This document shows positions 1 through 19,374 of a stretch of 19,374 nucleotides of DNA, one piece after another. Positions within the stretch are counted from its first letter, which is position 1. Each line of letters starts with the position of its first letter. The notes under the pieces are model-generated. The model saw nothing but the letters and a program-made list of their open reading frames with translations. It did not search any database and had not been told where the DNA came from. This DNA is from a virus (Duplodnaviria > Heunggongvirae > Uroviricota > Caudoviricetes): the IMG/VR virus record IMGVR_UViG_2690316142_000006. One strand, given 5' to 3'. The position numbers and the translations under genes are program-made.

Positions 1-372
1 GAAGGAGTGTCCGTTAAACTCAGGCTACCTCAGTCTGCTGATTTGAGTCGCTACAGTGGCACGGTGGTTAACCGTCCGACGTTTTTTGCTTTTGCAAAAG
101 GCGCGGGTGTGATGGGGGAAGCGGGACCTGAAGCCATTCTGCCACTGCGTCGCGGTGCTGATGGTAAGCTGGGGGGTGTGGCGGATACTGGTGGTTCAGG
201 CATGGTGATGTTTGCCCCGCAGTACAACATTGAGATCAATAACGATGGCACGAACGGGCAGATAGGTCCGGCTGCCCTGAAGGTGGTTTATGACCTCGGG
301 AAAAAAGCGGCCGCGGACTTTATGCAACAGCAGGCCCGTGATGGTGGCCGGTTAAGTGGAGCATACCGGTAA
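1..372 (+). CDS. H: Tail tape measure protein, C-terminal end (gpH-like); gene continues upstream of the window
   Basis: Frame is open from base 1 to TAA at 370-372. The stop overlaps the ATG of the M homologue, matching lambda order H-M-L-K-I-J. Gly-rich C-terminus. Confidence 0.7.
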   Translation, partial: EGVSVKLRLPQSADLSRYSGTVVNRPTFFAFAKGAGVMGEAGPEAILPLRRGADGKLGGVADTGGSGMVMFAPQYNIEINNDGTNGQIGPAALKVVYDLGKKAAADFMQQQARDGGRLSGAYR

Positions 373-701
373 TGGAGACGTTTCACTGGAAAGTGCGCCC
401 GGATATGAATGTGGTATCAGAGCCGAAAGTGGTGACAGTGAAGCTGGGCGATGGTTATGAACAGCGTCGTGCGGCGGGACTGAATAACCAGTTGTCGACT
501 TACAGCGTGAAGATACGTGTTCGTAAAGGTGAACACCCATTTTTAAAAGCCTTTCTGGAACGGCACGGTGGCGTCCGCGCATTTCAGTGGACGCCACCTT
601 ATGACTGGAAGCCGATCAGGGTGGTTTGTCGTAAATGGTCGGCAAGCGTGGGGGCGTTGTGGGTAACCATAACGGCAGATTTTGAACAGGTCGTGGCATA
701 G
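372..701 (+). CDS. M: Minor tail protein M (lambda gpM family)
   Basis: 109-aa ORF beginning METFHWKVRPDMNVVSEPKVV, recognised as lambda gpM-like. Start overlaps the H stop and the gene sits directly before the L homologue. Confidence 0.88.
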   Translation: METFHWKVRPDMNVVSEPKVVTVKLGDGYEQRRAAGLNNQLSTYSVKIRVRKGEHPFLKAFLERHGGVRAFQWTPPYDWKPIRVVCRKWSASVGALWVTITADFEQVVA

Positions 702-710
702 GAGGCTCTG

Positions 711-1409
711 ATGCAGGATATTCCACAGGAAACACATCATGAGACGACACGCCTCACTCAGTCAGCCCAGGTGGTGCTCTGGGAAATCGATCTGACAGAG
801 GTCGGTGGTGAACGTTATTTTTTCTGTAATGAGCAGAACGAAAAAGGTGAGCCGGTTACCTGGCAGGGGCGGCAGTATCAGGCATACCCCATTCAGGGGA
901 CGGGATTTGAACTGAACGGCAAGGGCAGTGCTGCCCGTCCGACACTGACGGTTTCTAACCTGCACGGAATGGTCACCGGGATGGCGGAAGACCTGCAGAG
1001 TCTGGTCGGCGGAACGGTGGTCAGGCGTAAGGTTTACGCCCGTTTTCTGGATGCGGTGAACTTCGTCAACGGAAACAGCGACGCCGATCCGGAACAGGAG
1101 GTGATCAGCCGCTGGCGCATCGAGCAGTGCAGCGAACTGAGCGCGGTCAGTGCCTCTTTTGTGCTGGCCACACCAACGGAGACGGATGGCGCGGTTTTCC
1201 CGGGGCGTATCATGCTGGCGAATACCTGTATGTGGACTTACCGTTCTGATGAGTGTGGTTACACGGGCAGGGCAGTGGCTGACGAGTTCGACAAACCAAC
1301 GACGGATATCCGGAAGGACAAATGCAGCAAGTGTATGCGCGGGTGTGAGTTGCGCAACAATACCGGTAATTTCGGCGGTTTCCTTTCCATCAATAAACTT
1401 TCTCAGTAA
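711..1409 (+). CDS. L: Minor tail protein L (lambda gpL family)
   Basis: 232-aa ORF with Cys-rich C-terminus (CSKCMRGCELRNNTGNFGGFLSINKLSQ) typical of gpL. Lies between the M and K homologues. Confidence 0.9.
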   Translation: MQDIPQETHHETTRLTQSAQVVLWEIDLTEVGGERYFFCNEQNEKGEPVTWQGRQYQAYPIQGTGFELNGKGSAARPTLTVSNLHGMVTGMAEDLQSLVGGTVVRRKVYARFLDAVNFVNGNSDADPEQEVISRWRIEQCSELSAVSASFVLATPTETDGAVFPGRIMLANTCMWTYRSDECGYTGRAVADEFDKPTTDIRKDKCSKCMRGCELRNNTGNFGGFLSINKLSQ

Positions 1410-1413
1410 ATCC

Positions 1414-2157
1414 ATGACACAGACAGAATCAGCGATTCTGGCGCACGCCCGGCGATGTGCGCCAGCGGAGTCGTGTGGCTTCGTGGTAAGAACGCCGGAG
1501 GGAGACAGGTATCTTCCCAGCGAGAATATCTCCGGTGAGCCGGAGGAACGGTTCCGGATGGCTCCGGAGGACTGGCTGCGGGCACAAATGCAGGGTGAGA
1601 TTGTGGCGCTGGTCCACAGTCATCCCGGTGGTCTGCCCTGGCTGAGTGAGGCTGACCGGCGGCTGCAGGTGCAGAGTGATTTGCCGTGGTGGCTGGTCTG
1701 CCGGGGGGCGATTCACAAGTTCCGCTGTGTGCCGCATCTCACCGGGCGGCGCTTTGAGCACGGGGTGACGGACTGTTACACGCTGTTCCGGGATGCTTAT
1801 CATCTGGCAGGGATTGAGATGCCGGATTTTCATCGCGGGGATGACTGGTGGCGTAACGGTCAGAATCTCTATCTTGACAATATGGAGGTGACGGGTTTTT
1901 ACCGTGTCGCACTGACAGAGGCACAGCCGGGCGATGTGCTGCTGTGCTGTTTTGGTTCATCGGTGCCGAATCATGCCGCCATTTACTGTGGTGACGGCGA
2001 GCTGCTGCACCATATTCCTGAACAACTGAGCAAACGAGAGAGGTATACCGACAAATGGCAGCGACGCACACACTCCCTCTGGCGTCACCGGGCATGGCGC
2101 GCATCTGCCTTTACGGGGATTTACAACGATTTGGTCGCCGCATCGACCTTCGTGTGA
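1414..2157 (+). CDS. K: Tail assembly protein K (MPN/JAMM plus NlpC/P60 motifs)
   Basis: Start chosen at the ATG (MTQTESAILAHARRC) 4 nt after the L stop; the track ORF from 1150 is an in-frame upstream extension inside L. JAMM-like motif HSHPGGLPWLSEAD (HxHx7SxxD); Cys (DCYTLF) and His (LLHHIP) as in NlpC/P60 peptidases. Confidence 0.85.
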   Translation: MTQTESAILAHARRCAPAESCGFVVRTPEGDRYLPSENISGEPEERFRMAPEDWLRAQMQGEIVALVHSHPGGLPWLSEADRRLQVQSDLPWWLVCRGAIHKFRCVPHLTGRRFEHGVTDCYTLFRDAYHLAGIEMPDFHRGDDWWRNGQNLYLDNMEVTGFYRVALTEAQPGDVLLCCFGSSVPNHAAIYCGDGELLHHIPEQLSKRERYTDKWQRRTHSLWRHRAWRASAFTGIYNDLVAASTFV

Positions 2158-2696
2158 AAACGGGGGCTGAAGCCATCCGGGCACTGGCCACACAGCTCCC
2201 GGCGTTTCGTCAGAAACTGAGTGACGGCTGGTATCAGGTGCGCATTGCCGGGCGTGATGCAGGTGAAACCGAATTGTCTGCCCGTCTTAATGAGCCGCTG
2301 GCAAATGGTGCAGTGATCCACATAGTACCGCGTCTGGTGGGAGCTAAAAGTGGCGGTGTGTTTCAGGCGGTGCTGGGGGCGGCTGTTATGGCGGTTGCTA
2401 TATGGATGCCGGGGGTAGGAATTATGGCGAGTAATCTGCTGTTTTCTCTCGGTGCCAGTATGACGCTTGGCGGTGTTGCACAGATGCTGGCACCGAAAGC
2501 CAGAACTCCCCGTACACAGACAACGGATAACGGTAAGCAGAACACGTATTTCTCGTCACTGGATAACATGGTTGCCCAGGGCAATGTTCTGCCCGTTCTG
2601 TACGGTGAAATGCGCGTGGGGTCACGTGTGGTTTCTCAGGAGATCAGCACGGCAGACGAAGGGGATGGTGGTCAGGTTGTGGTGATTGGTCGCTGA
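2055..2696 (+). CDS. I: Tail assembly protein I (lambda gpI family)
   Basis: 213-aa ORF MAATHTLPLASPGMARICLYGDLQRF with hydrophobic Gly/Ala-rich central segment. Overlaps the 3' end of K. An alternative start at 2094 (MARICLY) is possible. Confidence 0.85.
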   Translation: MAATHTLPLASPGMARICLYGDLQRFGRRIDLRVKTGAEAIRALATQLPAFRQKLSDGWYQVRIAGRDAGETELSARLNEPLANGAVIHIVPRLVGAKSGGVFQAVLGAAVMAVAIWMPGVGIMASNLLFSLGASMTLGGVAQMLAPKARTPRTQTTDNGKQNTYFSSLDNMVAQGNVLPVLYGEMRVGSRVVSQEISTADEGDGGQVVVIGR

Positions 2697-2714
2697 TGCA
2701 AAATGTTTTATGTG

Positions 2715-2738
2715 AAACCGCCTGCGGGCGGTTTTGTC
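2715..2738 (+). terminator. Short GC hairpin plus T-run in the I-J intergenic spacer (possible weak terminator or attenuator)
   Basis: aaaccgcc-tgcg-ggcggttt followed by tg/tcgttt. GAGG Shine-Dalgarno at 2750-2753 precedes the J ATG at 2757. Confidence 0.3.
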
Positions 2739-2756
2739 GTTTATGGAGCGTGAGGA

Positions 2757-5700
2757 ATGGGTAAAGGCAGCAGTAAGGGGCATACCCCGCGCGAAGCGAA
2801 GGACAACCTGAAATCCACGCAGTTGCTGAGTGTGATTGATGCCATCAGCGAAGGGCCGGTTGACGGTCCGGTGGATGGATTAAAAAGCGTGCTGCTGAAC
2901 GGTACGCCGGTCCTGGACAGCGAGGGGAAGACAAACTTTTCCGGTGTTACGGTGGTGTTCCGTGCAGGTGAGCAGGAGCAGACACCGCCGGAGGGTTTTG
3001 AATCCTCCGGCTCCGAGACGGTGCTGGGTACGGAAGTGAAATATGACACGCCGATCACCCGGACCATCACGTCGGCAAACATCGACCGTCTGCGCCTGAC
3101 CTTCGGTGTGCAGGCACTGGTGGAAACCACCTCAAAGGGTGACCGGAATCCGTCGGAAGTCCGCCTGCTGGTTCAGATACAGCGTAACGGTGGCTGGGTG
3201 ACGGAAAAAGACATCACCATTAAGGGCAAAACCACTTCGCAGTATCTGGCCTCGGTGGTGGTGGGTAACCTGCCGCCGCGCCCGTTTAATATCCGGATGC
3301 GCAGGATGACACCGGACAGCACCACAGACCAGCTGCAGAACAAAACGCTCTGGTCGTCGTACACCGAAATCATCGATGTGAAACAGTGCTACCCGAACAC
3401 GGCGCTGGTCGGCGTGCAGGTGGATTCAGAGCAGTTCGGTAACCAGCAGGTGAGTCGCAATTATCATCTTCGCGGGCGCATTCTGCAGGTGCCGTCGAAC
3501 TATAATCCGCAGACGCGGCAATACAGCGGTATCTGGGACGGAACGCTTAAGCCAGCATACAGCAACAACATGGCCTGGTGTCTGTGGGACATGCTCACTC
3601 ATCCGCGCTACGGCATGGGGAAACGTCTTGGTGCGGCAGATGTGGACAAATGGGCGCTGTATGTCATCGGCCAGTACTGCGACCAGTCAGTGACGGACGG
3701 ATTTGGCGGCACGGAGCCGCGCATCACCTGTAACTCTTACCTGACCACACAGCGTAAGGCGTGGGATGTTCTCAGTGATTTCTGCTCGGCGATGCGCTGT
3801 ATGCCGGTATGGAACGGACAGATGCTGACGTTCGTGCAGGACCGACCGTCGGATAAGGTGTGGACCTATAACCGCAGTAATGTGGTGATGCCGGACGATG
3901 GCGCGCCGTTCCGCTACAGCTTCAGCGCCCTGAAGGACCGCCATAATGCCGTTGAGGTGAACTGGATTGACCCAGATAACGGCTGGGAGACGGCGACAGA
4001 GCTTGTGGAGGATACGCAGGCCATTGTCCGTTACGGTCGTAACGTCACGAAGATGGATGCCTTTGGCTGTACCAGCCGGGGGCAGGCACACCGAGCCGGG
4101 CTGTGGCTGATTAAAACGGAACTGCTGGAAACGCAGACCGTGGACTTCAGCGTGGGCGCAGAAGGGCTTCGCCATGTACCGGGTGATGTCATTGAAATCT
4201 GCGATGATGATTATGCCGGTATCAGCACCGGTGGTCGCGTACTGGCGGTGAACAGCCAGACCCGGACGCTGACGCTCGACCGTGAAATCACGCTGCCGTC
4301 CTCCGGTACCACGCTGATAAGCCTGGTTGACGGAAGTGGCAATCCGGTCAGCGTGGAGGTCCAGTCCGTCACCGACGGCGTGAAGGTGAAAGTGAGCCGG
4401 GTTCCTGACGGCGTTGCAGAATACAGCGTGTGGGGGCTGAAGCTGCCGACGCTGCACCAGCGATTGTTCCGCTGCGTGAGTATCCGTGAGAACGACGACG
4501 GCACGTATGCCATCACCGCCGTGCAGCATGTGCCGGAAAAAGAGGCCATCGTGGATAACGGGGCACACTTTGACGGTGACCGGCGCGGCACGGTGAATGG
4601 TGTCACGCCGCCAGCGGTGCAGCACCTGACTGCCGAAGTCACCGCAGACAGCGGGGAATATCAGGTGCTGGCGCGATGGGACACGCCGAAGGTGGTGAAG
4701 GGTGTGAGCTTCCTGCTTCGCCTGACCGTGGCAGCGGACGACGGCAGTGAGCGGCTGGTCAGCACAGCCAGGACGACGGAAACCACATACCGCTTCAGGC
4801 AGCTGGCGCTGGGGAATTACAGTCTGACAGTCCGGGCGGTAAATGCCCGGGGGCAGCAGGGCGATCCGGCGTCGGTATCGTTCCGGATTGCGGCACCGGC
4901 AGCGCCTGTCACTATTGAACTGATACCGGGGTATTTTCAGATAACGGCGGTCCCGAAACTGGCTGTATATGACCCGACGGTGCAGTTTGAGTTCTGGTTT
5001 TCGGAAAAGCGGATTGCGGATATCAGGCAGGTTGAAACCAGCGCCCGCTATCTTGGCACGGCGCTGTACTGGATAGCCGCCAGTATCAATATCAGGCCGG
5101 GCCATGATTATTATTTTTACGTTCGCAGTGTGAACACCGTTGGCAAATCGGCATTTGTGGAGGCCATCGGTCGGGCGAGCGATGATGCAGAAGGTTATCT
5201 GAATTTTTATAAAGGGTTGATCAATAAAACGCATCTCGGCAAGGAGTTGTGGACGCAGATTGATAACGGTCAGCTTGCGCCGGACCTGACTGAAATCAGG
5301 ACGTCCATTACGAATGTCAGCAATGAAATCACGCTGCCATCCTCCGGCACCACGCTGATAAGCCTGGTTGACGGGCAGGGGAATCCGGTCAGCGTGGAGG
5401 TCCAGTCCGTCACCGACGGCGTGAAGGTAAAAGTGAGCCGTGTTCCTGACGGTGTTGCTGAATACAGCGTGTGGGGGCTGAAGCTGCCGACGCTGCACCA
5501 GCGATTGTTCCGCTGCGTGAGTATCCGTGAGAACGACGACGGCACGTATGCCATCACCGCCGTGCAGCATGTGCCGGAAAAAGAAGCCATCGTGGATAAC
5601 GGGGCGCACTTTGACGGCGACCAGAGCGGCACGGTGAATGGTGTCACGCCGCCAGCGGTGCAGCACCTGACTGCCGAAGTCACCGCAGACAGCGGGGAAT

Positions 5701-7295
5701 ATCAGGTGCTGGCGCGCTGGGACACGCCGAAGGTGGTGAAGGGCGTGAGCTTCCTGCTCCGTCTGACCGTAACAGCGGATGACGGCAGTGAGCGGCTGGT
5801 CAGCACGGCCCGGACGACGGAAACCACTTACCGCTTCACACAACTGGCGCTGGGGAACTACAGGCTGACAGTCCGGGCAGTAAATGCGTGGGGGCAGCAG
5901 GGCGATCCGGCGTCGGTATCGTTCCGGATTGCCGCACCGGCAGCGCTGTCGCGGATTGAGCTGACGCCGGGCTATTTTCAGATAACCGCCACGCCGCATC
6001 TTGCGGTTTATGATCCGACGGTACAGTTTGAGTTCTGGTTCTCGGAAAAGCGGATTGCGGATATCAGGCAGGTTGAAACCACAGCACGCTATCTTGGCAC
6101 GGCGCTGTACTGGATAGCCGCCAGTATCAATATCAAACCGGGCCATGATTATTACTTTTATATCCGCAGTGTGAACACCGTTGGCAAATCGGCATTCGTG
6201 GAGGCTGTTGGTCAGCCGAGTGATGATGCATCCGGTTATCTGGATTTTTTCAAAGGCGAGATAGGGAAAACCCATCTGGCTCAGGAGCTGTGGACGCAGA
6301 TTGATAACGGTCAGCTTGCGCCTGACCTGGCTGAAATCAGGACGTCCATTACGGATGTCAGCAATGAAATCACGCAGACCGTCAATAAGAAACTGGAAGA
6401 CCAGAGTGCGGCAATTCAGCAGATACAGAAGGTTCAGGTTGATACAAATAATAACCTGAACAGCATGTGGGCTGTGAAGCTGCAGCAGATGCAGGACGGA
6501 CGCCTTTATATCGCGGGTATTGGTGCCGGTATTGAGAACACCCCTGACGGCATGCAGAGTCAGGTGCTGCTGGCGGCGGACAGGATTGCGATGGTTAATC
6601 CTGCGAATGGCAACACAAAACCGATGTTTGTTGGTCAGGGCGATCAGATATTCATGAACGACGTGTTCCTGAAACGCCTGACGGCCCCCACCATTACCAG
6701 CGGTGGAAATCCATCGGCATTTTCCCTGACTCCGGACGGAAAGCTGACCGCTAAAAATGCGGATATCAGTGGCAGTGTGAATGCGAACGCCGGGACGCTC
6801 AACAATGTCACGGTAAATGAAAACTGTACGATTAAGGGCATGCTGGAGGCGACTCAGGTCAGAGGTGACTTCGTTAAAGCTGTATCCAAATCATTTCCGA
6901 AACAGGCTGGTACGTGGGGTAACACGGAAACACCAAACGGGACGGTTACAGTCACCATAAGCGATGATCATAACTTTGACCGCCAGATTATTATTCCGCC
7001 CATTATTTTTAACGGTATAGCGTATGACGATCCGGGGAGCGGAAATAACCCAGGAGGCACGCGATACACGGGTTATGGTTTTGAAGTTCGCAAAAACGGC
7101 GTATTAATCGCATCCAGAGAAACTAAAGGTGCCATTCCCGGTAGTTACAGTGCAGTTATTGATATGCCTAGTGGTGGTGGTAGCGTCACTCTGGAGTTTA
7201 AGATTTTCCAGAAAGGCAATCAGGGGGCAGGCAATATCACCGACTGTACGGTGATTGTGACCAAAAAAGCGGCTTCCGGCATCAGTATTCGTTGA
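2757..7295 (+). CDS. J: Tail tip / central tail fibre host-specificity protein J, 1512 aa, with an internal in-frame duplication
   Basis: N-terminus [34 protein letters not shown] matches lambda J as I recall it. Conserved J motifs throughout (e.g. [21 protein letters not shown]). About 347 aa longer than a lambda-type J because of the tandem duplication at 4284-6365. Confidence 0.9.
4284..6365 (+). repeat. Tandem direct repeat inside J: two 1041-bp units (4284-5324 and 5325-6365), about 95% identical
   Basis: Both units start with gaaatcacgcTGCC and the same 10-mer gaaatcacgc recurs at 6366. Protein block from [16 protein letters not shown] to TSIT(N/D)VSNE occurs twice. Unit length is a multiple of 3. 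Confidence 0.85.
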
Positions 7296-7317
7296 AATAT
7301 TTATAACCCCAATAAAT

Positions 7318-7344
7318 GGCGTCAGGAATGACGCCTTTTTTATT
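7318..7344 (+). terminator. Rho-independent terminator downstream of J
   Basis: ggcgtca-ggaa-tgacgcc followed by ttttttatt, 23 nt after the J stop. Confidence 0.6.
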
Positions 7345-7365
7345 GCAGAAAAGCGAGAGGTAATT

Positions 7366-7842
7366 ATGCGTAAAGTTTGTGCAGCCATTTTGTCCGCAGC
7401 CATTTGCCTGGCCGTATCCGGTGCGCCTGCATGGGCGTCTGAACATCAGTCCACGCTGAGCGCGGGGTATCTTCATGCCCGGACCAACGTTCCCGGCAGT
7501 GATGATCTGAACGGGATTAACGTGAAATACCGTTATGAGTTTACGGATACGCTGGGGCTGGTGACGTCATTCAGCTATGCAGGAGACAAGAATCGCCAGC
7601 TGACCCGTTACAGCGATACCCGCTGGCATGAAGATTCCGTGCGTAACCGCTGGTTCAGCGTGATGGCGGGGCCGTCTGTGCGCGTGAATGAATGGTTCAG
7701 CGCGTATGCGATGGCGGGTGTGGCTTACAGCCGTGTGTCGACTTTTTCCGGGGATTATATCCGCGTAACTGACAATAAGGGGAAAACGCACGATGTGCTG
7801 ACCGGAAGTGATGACGGTCGCCACAGCAACACGTCTCTGGCG
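7366..7842 (+). CDS. lom: Lom family outer-membrane protein (Ail/Lom/OmpX/PagC beta-barrel family), 3'-truncated at an N/junction
   Basis: Signal peptide MRKVCAAILSAAICLAVSGAPAWA, GAGAGG RBS, aromatic-rich beta-strand pattern. The reading frame runs into N at 7843 and then into J-internal sequence. Confidence 0.75.
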
Positions 7843-7843
7843 N
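7843..7843. other. Single unresolved base (N) at a junction between lom sequence and J-internal sequence
   Basis: Literal n in the sequence. Flanks are lom ...tctctggcg on the left and J-internal gcaccggcagcgcctgtcact on the right. Confidence 0.95.
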
Positions 7844-9187
7844 GCACCGGCAGCGCCTGTCACTATTGAACTGATACCGGGGTATTTTCAGATAACGGCG
7901 GTCCCGAAACTGGCTGTATATGACCCGACGGTGCAGTTTGAGTTCTGGTTTTCGGAAAAGCGGATTGCGGATATCAGGCAGGTTGAAACCACAGCACGCT
8001 ATCTTGGCACGGCGCTGTACTGGATAGCCGCCAGTATCAATATCAGGCCGGGCCATGATTATTATTTTTACGTTCGCAGTGTGAACACCGTTGGCAAATC
8101 GGCATTTGTGGAGGCCATCGGTCGGGCGAGCGATGATGCAGAAGGTTATCTGAATTTTTATAAAGGGTTGATCAATAAAACGCATCTCGGCAAGGAGTTG
8201 TGGACGCAGATTGATAACGGTCAGCTTGCGCCGGACCTGACTGAAATCAGGACGTCCATTACGAATGTCAGCAATGAAATCACGCAAACCGTCAATAAAA
8301 AACTGGAAAATCAGAGTGCTGCAATCCAGCAGATACAGAAAGTTCAGGTTGATACAAATAATAACCTGAACAGCATGTGGGCTGTGAAGCTGCAACAGAT
8401 GAAGGACGGACGCCTTTATATTGCGGGTATCGGTGCCGGTATTGAGAATACGCCAGCAGGAATGCAGAGTCAGGTGCTGCTGGCGGCAGACAGGATTGCG
8501 ATGATTAATCCTGCGAATGGCAACACAAAGCCGATGTTTGTTGGTCAGGGCGATCAGATATTCATGAACGACGTGTTCCTGAAATGCCTGACGGCTCCGA
8601 CCATTACCAGCGGCGGTAATCCTCCGGCATTTTCCCTGACACCTGGCGGACGGCTGACGGCGAAAAATGCCGATATCAGCGGTAACGTGAACGCGAACTC
8701 CGGGACGCTCAACAACGTCACGATTAATAAGAACTGTCGGGTTCTGGGAAAATTGTCCGCGAACCAGATTGAAGGCGATCTCGTTAAAACAGTGGGCAAA
8801 CCTTTCCCACGGGACTCCCGGGCACCGGAGAGGTGGCCATCAGGGACCATTACCGTCAGGGTTTATGACGATCAGCCGTTTGATCGGCAAATTGTTATTC
8901 CCGCGGTGGCGTTTCGCGGTGCTAAACATGAGCGGAAGAATAACAATATTTATTCGTCATGCCGCCTGATAGTGAAGAAAAACGGTGCTGAAATTTATAA
9001 CCGAACGACCCTGGATAATACGCTGATATATACGGGTGTTATTGATATGCCTGCCGGTCACGGTCACATGACGCTGGAGTTTTCTGTATCGGCATGGCTG
9101 GTAAATGGCTGGTATCCCACAGCAAGTATCAGCGATTTGCTGGTTGTGGTGATGAAGAAAGCCACTGCAGGCATCACGATTAGCTGA
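7844..9187 (+). CDS. J: J protein 3' fragment (second copy, no 5' part) with a different C-terminal receptor-binding region
   Basis: Starts mid-gene at sequence equivalent to J position 4893. A mosaic of unit-1-like and unit-2-like sequence. The C-terminal ~150 aa (...[35 protein letters not shown]...[10 protein letters not shown]) differs from the copy at 6840-7295. Confidence 0.8.
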
Positions 9188-9206
9188 ATTTTATAACCCA
9201 GATACG

Positions 9207-9233
9207 GGCACCAGAAATGGTGCCTTTTTTATT
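9207..9233 (+). terminator. Rho-independent terminator downstream of the J fragment
   Basis: ggcacc-agaaat-ggtgcc followed by ttttttatt. Confidence 0.55.
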
Positions 9234-9254
9234 GCAGAAAAGCGAGAGGTAATT

Positions 9255-9854
9255 ATGCGTAAAGTTTGTGCAGCCATTTTGTCCGCAGCCATTTGCCTGG
9301 CCGTATCCGGTGCGCCTGCATGGGCGTCTGAACATCAGTCCACGCTGAGCGCCGGGTATCTTCAGACCCATACTGATATGCCAGGCAGCGATGACCTGAA
9401 GGGCATTAACGTGAAATACCGTTATGAGTTTACGGACACGCTGGGGCTGATTACGTCATTCAGTTATGCCAACGCTGAAGATGAGCAAAAAACGCATTAC
9501 AGCGATACCCGCTGGCATGAGGATTCCGTGCGTAACCGCTGGTTCAGCGTGATGGCGGGGCCGTCTGTGCGCGTGAATGAATGGTTCAGCGCGTATGCGA
9601 TGGCGGGCGTGGCTTACAGCCGTGTGTCGACCTTCTCCGGGGATTATCTCCGCGTAACTGACAACAAGGGGAAAACGCACGATGTGCTGACCGGAAGTGA
9701 TGGCGGTCGCCACAGCAACACGTCTCTGGCGTGGGGGGCTGGCGTGCAGTTTAACCCGACCGAATCCGTGGCCATTGACCTTGCTTATGAAGGTTCCGGC
9801 AGTGGTGACTGGCGCACTGACGGTTTCATCGTGGGTGTCGGTTATAAGTTCTGA
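9255..9854 (+). CDS. lom: Lom family outer-membrane protein, intact (199 aa)
   Basis: Complete ORF with signal peptide and C-terminal ...GFIVGVGYKF ending in the terminal aromatic typical of beta-barrel outer-membrane proteins. Same upstream RBS context as the other copies. Confidence 0.9.
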   Translation: MRKVCAAILSAAICLAVSGAPAWASEHQSTLSAGYLQTHTDMPGSDDLKGINVKYRYEFTDTLGLITSFSYANAEDEQKTHYSDTRWHEDSVRNRWFSVMAGPSVRVNEWFSAYAMAGVAYSRVSTFSGDYLRVTDNKGKTHDVLTGSDGGRHSNTSLAWGAGVQFNPTESVAIDLAYEGSGSGDWRTDGFIVGVGYKF

Positions 9855-9882
9855 TTAGCCAGGTAACACAGTGTTATGACTG

Positions 9883-9906
9883 CCCGCTGGTTCAGGCGGG
9901 CTTTTT
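9883..9906 (+). terminator. Rho-independent terminator downstream of lom
   Basis: gcccgc-tggttca-gcgggc followed by ttttt, immediately upstream of the stf start. Confidence 0.6.
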
Positions 9907-9917
9907 GTGGGGTGAAT

Positions 9918-10244
9918 ATGGCAGTAAAGATTTCAGGTGTACTGAAAGATGGGGCGGGTAAACCTGTCGTAAATTGTGCGATTGAACTGCGGGCCAGAAG
10001 AACCAGTCCGACCGTTGTGGCACACGTTGTTGCCACTTGCGTGACGGACAATAACGGTGCTTATGTGATTGAGGCTGAGCCGGGGTATTACGAGGTTGCG
10101 CTTCACTGTAACGGCTGGCAGCCAACCCGTGTCGGGGATATTGATGTGGCACCGACTGATGCACCGGGGACACTGAACGCGTTTCTGAATGCACCAAAGG
10201 ATGGTGATTTACGTCCGGAGGTGATGAAGTGTCAGCGCCAGTGA
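9918..10244 (+). pseudogene. stf: Side tail fibre (stf) 5' fragment, interrupted after about 109 codons by an IS21-family element
   Basis: [12 protein letters not shown]... is homologous to the N-terminus of the full stf at 14926 but a diverged allele. The ORF stops at TGA 10242-10244 where the IS terminal sequence begins. The track ORF start at 9876 lies inside the lom terminator hairpin, so 9918 is preferred. Confidence 0.75.
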
Positions 10245-10330
10245 TATAAGACGGTAATTCGCCATTTGGATTGTCCGCTCCACCCAACATGTTGTTTCCT
10301 TAAGGTTCTCACACCAGAAAGGACATCAAC

Positions 10331-12300
<1,970 letters not shown>

Positions 12301-12349
12301 CGAAAGTATTTAGCGGGCATGAAAATGGCAAATAACGGTCAAACATCGT

Positions 12350-12360
12350 NNNNNNNNNNN
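12350..12360. other. Assembly gap (11 N)
   Basis: Literal n run. Left flank is the IS21-family right end, right flank is J-internal sequence. Confidence 0.98.
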
Positions 12361-14274
12361 AATCCGGTCAGCGTGGAGGTCCAGTCCGTCACCGACGGCG
12401 TGAAGGTAAAAGTGAGCCGTGTTCCTGACGGTGTTGCTGAATACAGCGTGTGGGGGCTGAAGCTGCCGACGCTGCACCAGCGATTGTTCCGCTGCGTGAG
12501 TATCCGTGAGAACGACGACGGCACGTATGCCATCACCGCCGTGCAGCATGTGCCGGAAAAAGAAGCCATCGTGGATAACGGGGCGCACTTTGACGGCGAC
12601 CAGAGCGGCACGGTGAATGGTGTCACGCCGCCAGCGGTGCAGCACCTGACTGCCGAAGTCACCGCAGACAGCGGGGAATATCAGGTGCTGGCGCGCTGGG
12701 ACACGCCGAAGGTGGTGAAGGGCGTGAGCTTCCTGCTCCGTCTGACCGTAACAGCGGATGACGGCAGTGAGCGGCTGGTCAGCACGGCCCGGACGACGGA
12801 AACCACTTACCGCTTCACACAACTGGCGCTGGGGAACTACAGGCTGACAGTCCGGGCAGTAAATGCGTGGGGGCAGCAGGGCGATCCGGCGTCGGTATCG
12901 TTCCGGATTGCCGCACCGGCAGCGCTGTCGCGGATTGAGCTGACGCCGGGCTATTTTCAGATAACCGCCACGCCGCATCTTGCGGTTTATGATCCGACGG
13001 TACAGTTTGAGTTCTGGTTCTCGGAAAAGCGGATTGCGGATATCAGGCAGGTTGAAACCACAGCACGCTATCTTGGCACGGCGCTGTACTGGATAGCCGC
13101 CAGTATCAATATCAAACCGGGCCATGATTATTACTTTTATATCCGCAGTGTGAACACCGTTGGCAAATCGGCATTCGTGGAGGCTGTTGGTCAGCCGAGT
13201 GATGATGCATCCGGTTATCTGGATTTTTTCAAAGGCGAGATAGGGAAAACCCATCTGGCTCAGGAGCTGTGGACGCAGATTGATAACGGTCAGCTTGCGC
13301 CTGACCTGGCTGAAATCAGGACGTCCATTACGGATGTCAGCAATGAAATCACGCAGACCGTCAATAAGAAACTGGAAGACCAGAGTGCGGCAATTCAGCA
13401 GATACAGAAGGTTCAGGTTGATACAAATAATAACCTGAACAGCATGTGGGCTGTGAAGCTGCAGCAGATGCAGGACGGACGCCTTTATATCGCGGGTATT
13501 GGTGCCGGTATTGAGAACACCCCTGACGGCATGCAGAGTCAGGTGCTGCTGGCGGCGGACAGGATTGCGATGGTTAATCCTGCGAATGGCAACACAAAAC
13601 CGATGTTTGTTGGTCAGGGCGATCAGATATTCATGAACGACGTGTTCCTGAAACGCCTGACGGCCCCCACCATTACCAGCGGTGGAAATCCATCGGCATT
13701 TTCCCTGACTCCGGACGGAAAGCTGACCGCTAAAAATGCGGATATCAGTGGCAGTGTGAATGCGAACGCCGGGACGCTCAACAATGTCACGGTAAATGAA
13801 AACTGTACGATTAAGGGCATGCTGGAGGCGACTCAGGTCAGAGGTGACTTCGTTAAAGCTGTATCCAAATCATTTCCGAAACAGGCTGGTACGTGGGGTA
13901 ACACGGAAACACCAAACGGGACGGTTACAGTCACCATAAGCGATGATCATAACTTTGACCGCCAGATTATTATTCCGCCCATTATTTTTAACGGTATAGC
14001 GTATGACGATCCGGGGAGCGGAAATAACCCAGGAGGCACGCGATACACGGGTTATGGTTTTGAAGTTCGCAAAAACGGCGTATTAATCGCATCCAGAGAA
14101 ACTAAAGGTGCCATTCCCGGTAGTTACAGTGCAGTTATTGATATGCCTAGTGGTGGTGGTAGCGTCACTCTGGAGTTTAAGATTTTCCAGAAAGGCAATC
14201 AGGGGGCAGGCAATATCACCGACTGTACGGTGATTGTGACCAAAAAAGCGGCTTCCGGCATCAGTATTCGTTGA
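12361..14274 (+). CDS. J: J protein 3' fragment (third copy), identical to J 5382-7295
   Basis: Translation is identical to the C-terminal 637 aa of the full J. The track ORF 12319-14274 (MKMANNGQTSXXXX...) is an artificial fusion across the N gap. Confidence 0.8.
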
Positions 14275-14296
14275 AATATTTATAACCCCAATAAAT

Positions 14297-14323
14297 GGCG
14301 TCAGGAATGACGCCTTTTTTATT
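14297..14323 (+). terminator. Rho-independent terminator downstream of J (copy of 7318-7344)
   Basis: Same hairpin plus T-run as 7318-7344. Confidence 0.6.
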
Positions 14324-14344
14324 GCAGAAAAGCGAGAGGTAATT

Positions 14345-14827
14345 ATGCGTAAAGTTTGTGCAGCCATTTTGTCCGCAGCCATTTGCCTGGCCGTATCCGG
14401 TGCGCCTGCATGGGCGTCTGAACATCAGTCCACGCTGAGCGCGGGGTATCTTCATGCCCGGACCAACGTTCCCGGCAGTGATGATCTGAACGGGATTAAC
14501 GTGAAATACCGTTATGAGTTTACGGATACGCTGGGGCTGGTGACGTCATTCAGCTATGCAGGAGACAAGAATCGCCAGCTGACCCGTTACAGCGATACCC
14601 GCTGGCATGAAGATTCCGTGCGTAACCGCTGGTTCAGCGTGATGGCGGGGCCGTCTGTGCGCGTGAATGAATGGTTCAGCGCGTATGCGATGGCGGGTGT
14701 GGCTTACAGCCGTGTGTCGACTTTTTCCGGGGATTATATCCGCGTAACTGACAATAAGGGGAAAACGCACGATGTGCTGACCGGAAGTGATGACGGTCGC
14801 CACAGCAACACGTCTCTGGCGCACTGA
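14345..14827 (+). pseudogene. lom: lom with an 83-bp internal deletion and frameshift (premature stop)
   Basis: Aligns to lom 9255-9854 up to ...NTSLA (tctctggcg), then resumes at cactgacggtttcatcgtgggtgtcggttataaattctga. This omits the equivalent of 9732-9814; the deleted block ends in ctggcg, the same hexamer that precedes it. Confidence 0.75.
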
Positions 14828-14888
14828 CGGTTTCATCGTGGGTGTCGGTTATAAATTCTGATTAGCCAGGTAACACAGTGTTATGACA

Positions 14889-14914
14889 GCCCGCCGGTTC
14901 AGGCGGGCTTTTTT
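14889..14914 (+). terminator. Rho-independent terminator downstream of lom
   Basis: gcccgcc-ggttca-ggcgggc followed by tttttt. Confidence 0.6.
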
Positions 14915-14925
14915 GTGGGGTGAAT

Positions 14926-17900
14926 ATGGCAGTAAAGATTTCAGGTGTACTGAAAGACGGCACAGGAAAACCGGTACAGAACTGCACAATCCAGCTGAAA
15001 GCAAAACGTAACAGCACCACGGTGGTGGTGAACACGCTGGCCTCAGAAAATCCGGATGAAGCCGGGCGTTACAGCATGGACGTTGAGTACGGTCAGTACA
15101 GCGTTATTCTGTTGGTGGAAGGATTCCCGCCGTCACATGCCGGGACCATCACCGTGTATGAAGATTCCCGACCCGGTACGCTGAATGATTTTCTCGGTGC
15201 CATGACGGAGGATGATGCCCGTCCGGAGGCACTGCGCCGTTTTGAGCTGATGGTGGAAGAGGTGGCGCGTAACGCGTCCGCGGTGGCACAGAACACGGCA
15301 GCCGCGAAGAAATCAGCCAGCGATGCCAGCACATCAGCCCGTGAGGCGGCAACCCATGCGACTGATGCTGCAGATTCAGCACGTGCAGCCAGCACGTCAG
15401 CCGGACAGGCCGCTTCGTCGGCTCAGTCAGCGTCTTCCAGCGCAGGAACGGCATCAACAAAGGCCACTGAAGCCTCAAAAAGTGCTGCCGCTGCAGAGTC
15501 CTCAAAAAGCGCGGCGGCTACCAGTGCCGGTGCGGCGAAAACGTTAGAAACGAATGCGGCAGCGTCACAACAATCAGCAGCCACTTCTGCATCCACCGCG
15601 ACCACGAAAGCGTCAGAAGCTGCCACCTCAGCCCGGGATGCGTCGGCTTCAAAAGAGGCGGCAAAATCATCAGAAACGAACGCATCATCAAGCGCCAGTA
15701 GCGCAGCTTCCTCGGCGACGGCGGCTGCAAATTCTGCGAAGGCGGCCAAAACGTCCGAGACGAACGCCAGGTCTTCTGAAACGGCAGCGGGACAGAGTGC
15801 CTCAGCTGCGGCAGGCTCAAAAACAGCGGCTGCGTCGTCTGCCAGCGCCGCGTCAACAAGTGCCGGGCAGGCCTCAGCCAGTGCCACCGCCGCCGGAAAA
15901 TCGGCAGAAAGCGCCGCATCATCCGCTTCAACAGCCACAACGAAGGCTGGCGAAGCCACTGAGCAGGCCACGGCAGCAGCGAGGTCAGCTTCCGCAGCGA
16001 AGACATCCGAAACGAACGCGAAAGCGTCGGAAACCCGTGCAGAATCCTCAAAAACGGCTGCCGCATCGTCCGCCAGTTCGGCGGCGTCATCGGCATCATC
16101 GGCGTCTGCTTCAAAAGATGAGGCGACCAGACAGGCGTCAGCAGCGAAGGGCAGCGCCACGACGGCATCCACGAAGGCGACAGAGGCTGCTGGTAGTGCG
16201 ACGGCAGCAGCTCAGAGCAAAAGTACGGCGGAATCTGCAGCAACGCGCGCTGAGACAGCGGCAAAACGGGCAGAGGATATTGCATCCGCCGTGGCGCTTG
16301 AGGATGCGAGCACGACGAAAAAGGGGATAGTACAGCTCAGTAGTGCGACTAACAGCACTTCCGAGTCACTGGCGGCAACACCAAAAGCCGTTAAGGCCGC
16401 GTATGACCTGGCTAACGGGAAATACACCGCACAGGATGCAACGACAGCACAGAAAGGGATAATCCAGCTAAGCAGCGCGACCAACAGCACGTCTGAAACG
16501 CTGGCGGCAACGCCAAAGGCAGTAAAAGCAGCCAATGACAATGCTGAGAAACGTCTGCAGAAAGATCAGAACGGTGCGGATATCCCTGGCAAAGACACCT
16601 TTACGAAAAATATTGGTGCCTGCCGTGCCTTCGGTGGGTCAGTAAGCACAACAACAGGAAACTGGACGACTGCACAGTTTATCGAGTGGCTGGATTCTCA
16701 GGGAGCATTTAACCATCCATACTGGATGTGCAAGGGTTCCTGGTCTTATGGCAATAATAAAATCATTACTGATACTGGCTGCGGTAATATTCATCTCGCC
16801 GGAGCTGTCATTGAAGTAATGGGGATAAAGTCAGCGATGACGATCCGCATTACCACTCCGACCACATCCAGCGGTGGCGGAACAACCAACGCCCAGTTTA
16901 CCTATATTAATCACGGAACAGATTATTCACCTGGCTGGCGAAGGGACTATAACTCCAGAAATAAGCCAACGGCATCAGAGATCGGGGCGCTACCGTCAGG
17001 TGGAACAGCAGTATCATCAGTTAATCTGGCTTCAAAAGGTCGGGTAGCCGCGCTGACAGACAATACGCAGGGGGCAGCAGGTCTTGAGTTATACGAGGTG
17101 TATAACAACGGATATCCAACAGCGTATGGAAATATCATTCACCTGAAAGGGATGACAGCCGTTGGCGAAGGTGAGTTACTCATCGGCTGGAGTGGTACAA
17201 GCGGTGCTCATGCTCCGGCATTTATTCGTTCACGACGGGATACGACCGACGCAAACTGGTCGCCGTGGGCGCAGCTTTACACCTCGGCTCATCCTCCTGC
17301 AGAGTTTTATCCAGTCGGTGCACCAATCCCGTGGCCATCAGATACCGTTCCGTCTGGTTATGCCCTGATGCAGGGGCAGACTTTTGACAAATCTGCTTAC
17401 CCGAAACTTGCAGCCGCTTATCCGTCAGGCGTGATCCCTGATATGCGTGGCTGGACGATTAAGGGCAAGCCCGCCAGTGGTCGTGCCGTATTGTCTCAGG
17501 AACAGGATGGCATTAAATCGCACACCCACAGCGCCAGCGCATCCAGTACGGATTTGGGGACGAAAACCACATCGTCGTTTGATTACGGCACTAAATCCAC
17601 GAATAACACCGGGGCGCATACGCACAGTCTGAGCGGCTCTACAAGTTCAGCTGGGGCCCACCAACATAGTCAGACTGGGCCCAGAACGAATAGCGGGAGT
17701 CAACCTACTGGAATGTTTCCGGCAGGGAGTACTCAAGTTAGCGGGACTAATCAGGTTGGTATCAGTGGCTCATTAACCAGTGGCACCTCCCAATGGGTAG
17801 GTAAATCATCTTCAGAAGGAAACCATACACACTCACTGTCCGGCACAGCAGCATCTGCGGGTGCACACGCGCATACTGTCGGTATTGGTGCTCATACGCA

Positions 17901-18009
17901 CTCTGTTGCGATTGGTTCACATGGACACACCATCACCGTTAACGCTGCTGGTAACGCGGAAAACACCGTCAAAAACATCGCATTTAACTATATTGTGAGG
18001 CTCGCATAA
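14926..18009 (+). CDS. stf: Side tail fibre protein Stf (about 1027 aa) with a T4 gp37-like His-rich tip
   Basis: N-terminus [60 protein letters not shown] matches lambda Stf as I recall it. Long Ala/Ser/Thr-rich low-complexity shaft; two copies of KGI(V/I)[11 protein letters not shown](S/T)[11 protein letters not shown]; seven HxH motifs near the C-terminus. True start is ATG 14926; the track ORF starts at GTG 14920. Confidence 0.9.
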
Positions 18010-18590
18010 TGGCATTCAGAATGAGTGAACAAGCACGGACCATAAAAATTTATAACCTGCTGGCCGGAACTAATGAATTTATTGGTGAAGGTGACGCATA
18101 TATTCCGCCTCATACAGGTCTGCCTGCAAACAGTACCGATATTGCACCGCCAGATATTCCGGCTGGTTTCGTGGCTGTTTTCAACAGTGATGAGTCATCG
18201 TGGCATCTCGTTGAAGATCATCGGGGTAAAACGGTTTATGACGTGGCTTCCGGCGACGCGTTATTTATTTCTGAACTCGGCTCATTACCGGAAAATGTCA
18301 CCTGGTTATCCCCGGAAGGGGAGTTTCAGAAGTGGAACGGCACAGCCTGGGTGAAGGATACGGAAGCAGAAAAACTGTTCCGGATCCGGGAGGCGGAAGA
18401 AACAAAAAACAGCCTGATGCAGGTAGCCAGTGAGCATATAGCGCCGCTTCAGGATGCTGTGGATCTGGAGATCGCAACGGAGAAAGAAACCTTGTTGCTG
18501 GAAGCTTGGAAAAAGTATCGGGTGTTGCTGAACCGTGTTGATACATCAACTGCACCGGATATTGAATGGCCAGTAGCACCTATAGGGTAA
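18009..18590 (+). CDS. tfa: Tail fibre assembly protein Tfa (lambda Tfa family), 193 aa
   Basis: [54 protein letters not shown]... is near-identical to lambda Tfa as I recall it. Start overlaps the stf stop (taATGg). Confidence 0.9.
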
Positions 18591-18599
18591 ATTCGTAAT

Positions 18600-19339
18600 G
18601 ATTACCTAAATACGTTATTCTTTTGTTAAAAAAGTGATTTTGCTATAGGTAGGGAGTATGTTCTTGGATTAAGAATAAAAAATCGCCATGAAAGAGCTTC
18701 ATGGCGAGTACATAAACGTACAAAATGTGATGAAAGTAGAGTGGCGTAAGCCACTATATTAAGATATGACAATAGCGAAGAAAAGTAAATAACATTTTAT
18801 GGACGTTTAATTGTTAATTATAAAAACTAGAGTGCCCGATATTGTTTATCTTGCTTTAAAATAATGTACTCAAACCAAATTTTTGAGCTAAAAGCTCAAA
18901 TAATATAAATGCAATAATAATGTTTAATAAGACAATTAGCTTGCTTTGTATTTTCATTTCGGAATACTGTTAAGTAACTTTGATGACCCTAACAATAGAT
19001 CGGAATTTTCTTAGAGTCAATGGTCACTGTTTTTGCTTGCAAAGCAAATGTTTTGGTGGTTATAAGTCGTCTTAATATAGTCACGCATGCAACTTGTTCC
19101 ATGCGGAGATTAAAGATTGGAATATAACGCGAAGATGGAATTAAATTACATTTGCAATAATTAATTTATTATTACTCAATAATTACCGATATTATTATTG
19201 TAAATTAATCATTAGAATGCAAAAAGAAATGTAACGGCAAAATAAGAGGACGATAGCTGAGAAAAAAGCGTGCTTTCCCAATCTGGGGCAAATCACGTCT
19301 GAATGACACCTGAAAACAGGTGGTAGCCTCAAGAAGGCT
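18600..19339. other. AT-rich (about 30% GC) non-coding region between tfa and IS1
   Basis: No ORF of 60 aa or more on either strand. All three minus-strand frames carry frequent stops (tta/cta/tca triplets checked through 18716-18970). Several short palindromes. Base composition differs sharply from the ~50-55% GC tail genes. Confidence 0.7.
18671..18706 (-). terminator. Hairpin with a T-run on the minus strand (possible terminator for leftward transcription)
   Basis: cgccatgaa-agagc-ttcatggcg (9-bp stem); the flanking plus-strand aagaataaaaaat reads as a T-run on the minus strand. Confidence 0.4.
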
Positions 19340-19374
19340 GGTGATGCTGCCAACTTACTGATTTAGTGTATGAT
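19340..19374 (+). mobile_element. IS1 terminal inverted repeat and first 35 bp (element continues beyond the window)
   Basis: ggtgatgctgccaacttactgatttagtgtatgat matches the start of IS1 as I remember it. Confidence 0.8.

Follow-up and report, generated by a model that had tools for sequence, protein, structure and literature searches.

What is carried by the AT-rich DNA that follows the tail fibre assembly gene tfa, and how that DNA came to end in an insertion sequence, are the questions raised by a viral sequence of 19,374 nucleotides (nt; IMG/VR record IMGVR_UViG_2690316142_000006, Caudoviricetes), the whole of which is referred to here as the window. An original prediction had treated its last part, from about position 18600 to 19374, as a non-coding island bounded by an end of the insertion sequence IS1, and had correctly stated that no open reading frame (ORF) of 60 amino acids (aa) or more is present on either strand (18591-19374). 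The description as non-coding fails nonetheless, as the 60-aa threshold hid a conserved 33-aa ORF of the YncL family on the minus strand, termed ORF33 here, with a promoter-like site upstream of it and a terminator downstream. In the reading favored here, to which a probability of roughly 70% is given, the island represents the accessory end, mosaic in make-up, of a lambdoid prophage; an independent minus-strand moron with a YncL paralogue forms the core of the island, the right end of which is a scar cut by IS1.

The similarity of ORF33 to YncL emerged from a family-library scan of all the small ORFs of the island, in which it provided the one match, to the NCBIfam YncL model NF000537 (E=1.3e-5, 25.0 bits, positions 1-28 of 30 aligned). 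By BLASTP, YncL of Escherichia coli K-12 (MNVSSRTVVLINFFAAVGLFTLISMRFGWFI) aligns with it ungapped from Met1 at 39% identity (E=2e-7; 11/28 identical, 18/28 similar), and the Citrobacter YncL orthologue is 43% identical to it. Because both peptides are hydrophobic, a test with composition-preserving shuffles was run; the alignment score of 60 was reached by 0 of 20,000 shuffles in either direction (mean 20, standard deviation 4), and nine unrelated small membrane peptides scored 31 or less in the comparison. An identical peptide in metagenome contigs has the precomputed Pfam label PF28073 YncL, marked as weak. A protein search of 1.84 billion representatives yielded only the ORF33 peptide itself and a frameshift allele.

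The resemblance extends to organization. With its 33 aa ORF33 is close in length to YncL (31 aa), the two are collinear without gaps from Met1 to an FG motif, and both have a basic N-terminus, Asn12, one hydrophobic helix and, near the C-terminus, a basic residue followed by FG; both genes are tiny, free-standing and on the minus strand. The 18-residue hydrophobic core of ORF33 (LIVLLNIIIAFILFELLA) is flanked by Lys residues, and by analogy with YncL the product may well become a single-helix protein of the inner membrane. Differences are the C-terminal tails (LSTLF in ORF33, WFI in YncL), the long 3′ untranslated region (UTR) of ORF33 (about 150 nt), which has a terminator of its own, and the genomic setting, a prophage accessory region after tfa as distinct from the chromosomal patD-ortT interval of yncL. 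YncL (b4598) is a stress-induced inner-membrane protein of K-12 whose production was validated by tagging (Hemm et al., as cited in PMC12542507). It is induced by heat shock and in minimal medium, and its overproduction leads to sublethal depolarisation, the psp response and nucleoid condensation (PMC12542507). It is also a substrate of RseP in vivo (PMC10470546).

None of the 50 copies examined (29 distinct DNA sequences) has a disrupted ORF33, and variation avoids it: its 102 nt include only 2 variable columns, compared to 62 for the remaining 476 nt (Fisher p=4e-4, or p=0.011 once a recombination gradient at the right edge is removed). From the window allele more diverged ones, L102-L104 (down to 84.6% DNA identity), differ at six sites within ORF33, five of them synonymous. 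Overall, with inclusion of an I18V allele, five synonymous sites stand against two non-synonymous ones where the expected synonymous fraction is 0.20-0.29 (P=0.005-0.023), which is the type of substitution pattern that coding sequence displays. The 27 nt upstream of the ORF33 ATG are likewise conserved in the diverged alleles. Their homology to the window starts only at about 19136 and decays right past the terminator, and since it spans that interval the conserved block coincides with the transcription unit proposed here.

For that unit, the 29 distinct sequences all share the -10 hexamer of the promoter-like site and show a single variant of the -35 hexamer, and both hexamers are kept in L102/L103. 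At the other end, what had been noted as a terminator-like hairpin on the minus strand proves to be a textbook intrinsic terminator, with its stem at 18707-18683 and then TTTTTTATTC, and the stem is kept in all relatives including L102/L103. Its non-randomness follows from the shuffles, as the island has two terminator-like sites vs 0.3 +/- 0.6 in shuffled sequence and no more than 7 of 500 dinucleotide shuffles give rise to a 10-bp perfect hairpin. The fold of the minus-strand RNA between about 18985 and 18668 is better than those of its shuffles (z=-3.4), and for the last 93 nt of this RNA, comprising a stem-loop, an A/U-rich linker and the terminator, z is -7.2; this fold is compatible with either an ordinary stabilised mRNA 3′ end or a small RNA (sRNA) derived from the 3′ UTR. 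In the stem-loop preceding the terminator a C-to-U change in L102/L103 retains the pair as G-U. A hok-like pairing of the start region with the 3′ UTR was considered and rejected, being present only in the minimum free energy structure, absent from the centroid and uncompensated in L103. The features discussed are collected in Table 1.

Table 1. Features at and beyond tfa, in window coordinates
Feature	Position	Strand	Description
tfa	18009..18590	+	tail fibre assembly protein, 193 aa; last late gene; relatives annotated as tail fiber assembly protein
M1	18591..18757		tfa-proximal 167 bp; accompanies tfa in every relative, including cassette-less loci
Rho-independent terminator	18673..18707	-	10-11 bp stem (TCGCCATGAA/TTCATGGCGA), 100% complementary, then T-tract
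Second stem-loop	18737..18758	-	GUGGCU-UACG... GCCAC; within the 3′ UTR, the terminator following after about 30 nt
M2	18758..19168	-	moron-like cassette with putative promoter and small ORF
ORF33	18957..18856	-	MKIQSKLIVLLNIIIAFILFELLAQKFGLSTLF plus stop; 33 aa; YncL-family on the basis of NCBIfam, BLASTP and shuffles
Sigma-70 promoter-like site	18992..19020	-	TTGACT-17 nt-TATTGT, consensus match; predicted start near 18985, 5′ UTR about 28 nt
Palindrome	19032..19048		TTTGCTT-GCA-AAGCAAA; 12-28 nt upstream of the -35 hexamer; weakly constrained
AT-rich filler	19169..19254		86 bp, very AT-rich; only in the lambda-att-type lineage; no assignable feature
Start of 535-bp block	19255..19339		85 bp; rest of the block replaced by IS1
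IS1 left inverted repeat	19340..19374	+	window ends inside the element; transposase reads rightwards

Taken in the order of its expression, the ORF33 unit would be a small stretch of the minus strand transcribed independently and towards the late tail genes, in which leftward transcription from its own promoter in the lysogen would proceed through a short 5′ UTR, ORF33 and the structured 3′ UTR to the terminator, the latter presumably also shielding tfa from antisense transcription. Several considerations weigh against this, or limit how far it can be taken. At 25 bits ORF33 is under the curated 35-bit NCBIfam equivalog cut-off, and a Pfam library scan of it gave no match; because of the score it is not a YncL equivalog, and the failed threshold together with the different genomic context makes it a paralogue rather than yncL itself, so that on sequence comparison it would at best be classed as a divergent family member or paralogue of YncL. 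The putative promoter is only a 9-of-12 match to the consensus in a region that has 5 such sites vs 3.9 expected. The bases before the ATG (ttccgaaATG) include no Shine-Dalgarno sequence, whereas K-12 yncL has AAGGTGG, and translation of ORF33 is presumed despite this absence. Members of the family differ very little, no more than 7 variable sites underlie the selection statistics, in the diverged alleles the 3′ UTR is conserved to about the same degree as ORF33, and recent spread could be part of the cause of the conservation. The frameshift allele mentioned above (P0003, metagenome-derived, 43 aa) is identical to ORF33 to residue 26 and then diverges, which is consistent with an occasional inactivated allele due to a 1-nt slip in an A-run (CAAAAATTT) near the ORF33 3′ end. 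No transcriptomic, ribosome-profiling or proteomic support for ORF33 was found. For the right end, the window stops 35 nt into IS1, as is typical of the end of a short-read contig, so that only the left junction is visible and the structure to its right is read from relatives.

Other short reading frames in the island fare worse. Five further small ORFs gave no match with PHROGs, Pfam or NCBIfam beyond two marginal ones at chance level (E=0.075 and 0.2). A 24-codon plus-strand frame at 18688-18762, earlier remarked on as too short to call, does exist, and was rejected as a gene: its start is inside the terminator stem, it is without a Shine-Dalgarno sequence and it has no family matches. The longest frame of the island, of 52 aa (19353..19195), is on the minus strand with a TTG start within IS1, and another has 48 aa; the 52/55-aa ORF at 19195-19372, annotated in phage ev099, is judged spurious given that it spans the mosaic boundary at 19255, lacks a family match and is cut by IS1. 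A 37-aa minus-strand ORF (19102..18989), annotated in PhiR70_1, loses its start codon in L102/L103, and its exact peptide is absent from a collection of 15 billion proteins. The possibility of a decayed remnant of a larger gene, e.g. ybcY of the K-12 prophage DLP12, was also dismissed, as BLASTN at word size 7 against the tfaD-appY region gave nothing above chance.

The terminator is one of four palindromes to which attention had been drawn. That at 18882-18889/18893-18900 has perfect 8-bp arms and that at 19032-19038/19042-19048 perfect 7-bp arms, each exactly where it had been placed; the cgcatg/catgcg palindrome is real too, its true arms being 19084-19093/19096-19105, one base off the coordinates first assigned to it. 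Perfect 7-bp-arm matches number 9 (5 distinct hairpins) vs a shuffle mean of 1.4, and for the shorter palindromes the excess over the chance expectation for AT-rich DNA is only modest. Three of the four are probably incidental: the first sits in ORF33 codons 20-26 and an A24D allele breaks it, L102/L103 have lost the one at 19084-19105, and that at 19032-19048 is polymorphic, with C at position 19036 in 20 and T in 9 of the 29 distinct sequences, though it could serve as an operator. The terminator is the sole palindrome that is clearly constrained.

The composition of the island is as had been described (about 30% GC), with values of 28.0-30.3% in 300-nt windows over 18600-19199 compared to 46-63% for the tail-fibre genes, and with the drop beginning after the tfa stop codon (18590). 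From base composition alone, H-NS binding is plausible. The high-affinity H-NS motif TCGATAAATT is not enriched in the island, in what was a weak test and the only motif test run.

The origin of the island is clearer from its relatives. Module boundaries were derived from alignments and BLAST against 54 related loci, and divide it as given in Table 1. An O169 strain locus (L008) keeps M1 alone and passes from it directly to a fragment of a tfa 3′ end. M2 is absent from that locus, and is present in both lambda-att-type prophages and the Qin-type prophages at ydfJ (about 96% identity to the latter). The 535-bp block whose beginning is retained in the window constitutes, elsewhere, the right end of a prophage adjoining zinT/serU, e.g. 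in E. coli 042 (zinT). In intact loci it runs into 340 bp with 97% identity to the K-12 chromosome (5860-6199 of L004) that consist of the last 62 nt of the tRNA-Ser gene serU and 278 bp of the host DNA downstream; ARAGORN found no complete tRNA in the intact locus, which has just those 62 nt of serU and the host flank. This serU-like stretch is the scar of an ancestor phage integrated at serU. In Qin-type prophages at ydfJ, tfa 3′-end fragments are repeated just past the cassette (L006 5584-5666 and 6326-6500; L008 about 4215-4255), with about 75-83% identity to DLP12 tfaD/tfaX. They look like recombination linkers by which accessory cassettes are shuffled between tfa copies.

As to distribution, phages mEp332, PhiR70_1 and ev099 have the whole of the 749 bp from 18591 to 19339 at 98.5-99.6% identity. 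Among 5426 complete E. coli genomes 280 have full-length copies, partial copies number 1343, and the cassette is found in 811, with up to 3 copies per genome. A more distant BLAST search against phages gave nothing beyond the same 4 records, and scanning the GTDB species representatives for exact 31-mers was equally negative. The cassette lacks annotation in 40 of 40 sampled rows, and across genomes and phages the segment has none apart from two hypothetical ORFs in two phage records. Its position is constant, directly after tfa, and in intact loci an AraC-family gene is next, followed by attR at ybhB-bioA. The intact prophage of TUM9757 (L004) has the order J - lom - stf - tfa - segment - 757 bp - AraC-family gene - IS remnants - ybhB-bioA, which places the segment at the right end, equivalent to the b region, of a lambda-like prophage integrated in attB-lambda. 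The suggestion of a b-region-like accessory end is thereby substantiated, complete relatives having the segment between tfa and attR beside ybhB-bioA.

The IS1 terminus assigned to 19340 is also genuine. The terminal repeat GGTGATGCTGCCAACTTACTGATTTAGTGTATGAT is matched, and the identical junction in complete genomes continues into an annotated IS1A transposase (in strain 104, 55 nt further on). The exact junction is in 79 complete genomes, and uninterrupted sequence at that point in 831, the latter including serU-type prophage ends. Truncation by the element had been proposed, with the finding of a conserved spacer of a known prophage, free of IS truncation, being what would count against it. 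Half of the latter is the case: the segment is conserved in mEp332, ev099 and PhiR70_1 and intact in about 200 genomes, and the IS1 junction is in the 79. Insertion of IS1 is a later event in a subset of copies. In strain 104 the element does indeed replace 550 bp of the intact arrangement (L004 5750-6299, including the serU scar), and does so without target duplication, the flanks being ...caagaaggct / IS1 / cttattggct... in place of the 8-9 bp duplication of a simple insertion. The lack of duplication and the missing 550 bp point to an adjacent deletion rather than a simple insertion. There the element ends 206 bp upstream of the start codon of the regulator gene, with its transposase facing that gene. 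IS1-mediated adjacent deletions are known, as are IS insertions upstream of silenced genes such as bgl and flhDC, and the present case is like these in that IS1 is in AT-rich DNA, one side is replaced without target duplication, and the element is both close to and facing a regulator. The sequence of events at the right end would then be that IS1 inserted into DNA of which the remaining 85 bp are an arm of a formerly serU-integrated phage, and subsequently deleted the adjacent 550 bp to come to lie 206 bp from the regulator, whose expression may be affected.

The regulator past the island is a YdeO/AppY/GadX-like member of the AraC family (NCBIfam YdeO E=1.9e-43, below the equivalog cut-off). 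It is 247 aa long (L005 7135-7878 and L004 6506-7249), and many lambda-like phages, ev203 and 1H12 among them, have a copy with 53% identity in the corresponding place. Another relative, L033, has an IS1 of independent origin, oppositely oriented (about 12586-13090, equivalent to about 18711 of the window) and immediately after the terminator hairpin, and on account of this second element the AT-rich island can be termed a repeated IS1 target.

A moron is an independent unit of promoter, gene and terminator that has been inserted among the genes of a phage (Cumby et al. 2012, PMC3594210). The cassette, judged by its sequence features, fits the concept, with expression in the lysogen being a presumption: it is a discrete insertion with sharp boundaries at 18757 and 19168 (or 19136), its GC content is lower than that of its neighbors, it runs counter to the late operon and has both its own promoter-like site and its own intrinsic terminator, and it is present or absent among otherwise similar prophages. 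Its product is far smaller than those of typical morons, and its terminator is within M1, a module that stays with tfa in loci without the cassette. A further parallel is the right end of DLP12 in K-12 (tfaD - ybcY′ on the minus strand - tfaX′ - appY), which has the same layout of tfa, minus-strand accessory unit, tfa fragment and AppY/YdeO-type regulator. However, the island has no sequence similarity to ybcY or to the appY upstream region, and the accessory gene is for a 33-aa peptide rather than being a methyltransferase pseudogene. In kind, these findings extend known categories, namely small membrane proteins, morons and IS1 deletions.

Could the island be no more than an AT-rich spacer, i.e. 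acquired filler silenced by H-NS and conserved through recent prophage spread, with ORF33 a relic or a chance occurrence? The 28-30% GC, the lack of annotation in RefSeq and in two of the three phage records, the missing Shine-Dalgarno sequence, and the two hits by IS1, as would be expected of dispensable AT-rich DNA, are all in keeping with it, and since copies are 95-100% identical, conservation alone is weak evidence against it. What makes it unlikely is that a chance ORF would not be expected to have collinear, composition-corrected similarity to YncL from Met1, nor to be avoided by variable sites that, where they do occur, are mostly synonymous; a discrete cassette with a promoter-like site and strong terminator kept in diverged alleles, and the lack of enrichment for the H-NS motif (weak as that test is), add to this. 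The strength of the 93-nt fold raises another prospect, that the functional product is an sRNA, perhaps an Hfq-type one of about 85-90 nt from M1 with its own promoter or processed from the 3′ UTR of ORF33 mRNA, the ORF being secondary or the RNA having a dual function. Its layout is the classic one for sRNAs, M1 is retained where the cassette is missing (L008), and both the conservation of the 3′ UTR and the preservation of stem-loop pairing by the C-to-U change are pertinent. Yet a terminator with a stabilising hairpin equally suits an ordinary mRNA 3′ end, there is no convincing promoter directly upstream of 18757, and as homology breaks exactly at 18757 in L008 there can be no common promoter for an sRNA from M1. 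None of the Rfam covariance models reaches its gathering threshold in the island, the best being weak full-length alignments to MicC (22.8 bits, gathering score 90) and Esr41 (15.6 bits, gathering score 102) that are at chance level (E=0.98 and 4.9), and variation is too small for a covariation test. Quite a low probability is consequently attached to it.

A peptide of 33 aa with a single hydrophobic helix and basic N-terminal residues, whose homologue depolarises the membrane when overproduced, also calls to mind the toxin of a type I toxin-antitoxin-like module, which would stabilise the prophage end or abort infection, be poorly translated from its mRNA and be held in check by an antisense or cis RNA. 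Toxin mRNAs are similar in having no Shine-Dalgarno sequence and a long structured 3′ UTR, and a plus-strand promoter-like site at 18766-18795 could yield an antisense RNA. But the -35 hexamer of that site is altered in L102/L103, no plus-strand terminator or defined antisense unit was found in the island, the long-range pairing of the start region fails as described above, a PHROGs scan was without a match, and YncL is not classed as a toxin, its reported effect being sublethal; such a module is very improbable here. Regulation in cis deserves comparable scrutiny, with the island serving as a long upstream region for silencing or nucleation at the AraC-family regulator gene, which IS1 would have uncoupled from that region. 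Intact loci have about 1.5 kb of AT-rich DNA without annotation between tfa and the regulator gene, and the 79 genomes with the IS1 allele and the position and direction of the element after the 550-bp deletion are suggestive. At bgl and flhDC, silencing by H-NS is relieved when an IS inserts. Against this, M1 and M2 are also in Qin-type prophages that have no AraC gene downstream, the island has no plus-strand promoter of note, and in L032 about 1 kb of other DNA intervenes, from which it follows that the cassette is not tied to the regulator. At most the proposal would apply to 19169-19339, and for the island it is decidedly unlikely.

On the preferred reading, that of a moron with a YncL paralogue, a role can only be sketched. 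As overproduction of YncL causes sublethal depolarisation, the ORF33 product, if made in the lysogen and inserted in the inner membrane, might modulate membrane energetics and so act as a lysogenic-conversion or host-manipulation factor. A more specific version, in which a YncL paralogue present in about 15% of E. coli strains tunes the membrane potential of the lysogen, perhaps to exclude superinfecting phages whose DNA entry depends on proton-motive force or to favor a tolerant low-energy state, with the 3′ UTR maybe also released as a regulatory sRNA so that the cassette would have two functions, is speculative and unlikely to be correct in full. Since YncL itself is a validated E. coli small membrane protein whose role is unclear, a diverged prophage paralogue is a natural second family member, and the prophage context, with its phage-host conflict, is a new setting in which to seek the function of the family. 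The cassette is also carried by inducible phages able to plate on both K-12 and E. coli C. More generally, genes too short for the usual ORF thresholds can go unseen in AT-rich ‘non-coding’ islands at the ends of prophages, and are missed because they are without Shine-Dalgarno sequences and under curated HMM (hidden Markov model) cut-offs. The IS1 allele 206 bp from a YdeO/AppY-like regulator is, in addition, a testable case of IS-mediated rewiring of a prophage regulator.

Some observations concern the sequence before the island. Within tfa, Rfam ‘IS009’ (RF02111) has a full-length match (218 bits, E about 1e-53) at 18352-18550 on the plus strand that is wholly inside the coding sequence, and this ‘sRNA’ family appears to model tfa coding DNA. 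In L108 a Pfam Caudo_TAP match is on the neighboring gene. The layout of 1-14900 looks more complex than a single J-lom-stf series, and upstream ORFs include those of 1512 aa (2757-7295), 199 aa (9255-9854), 651 aa (12319-14274) and, just before stf, 160 aa. The region 15400-16350 is the Ala/Ser/Thr-rich repetitive center of the 1029-aa side tail fibre gene, and three spurious overlapping ORFs of 249-258 aa arise there in other frames and on the opposite strand.

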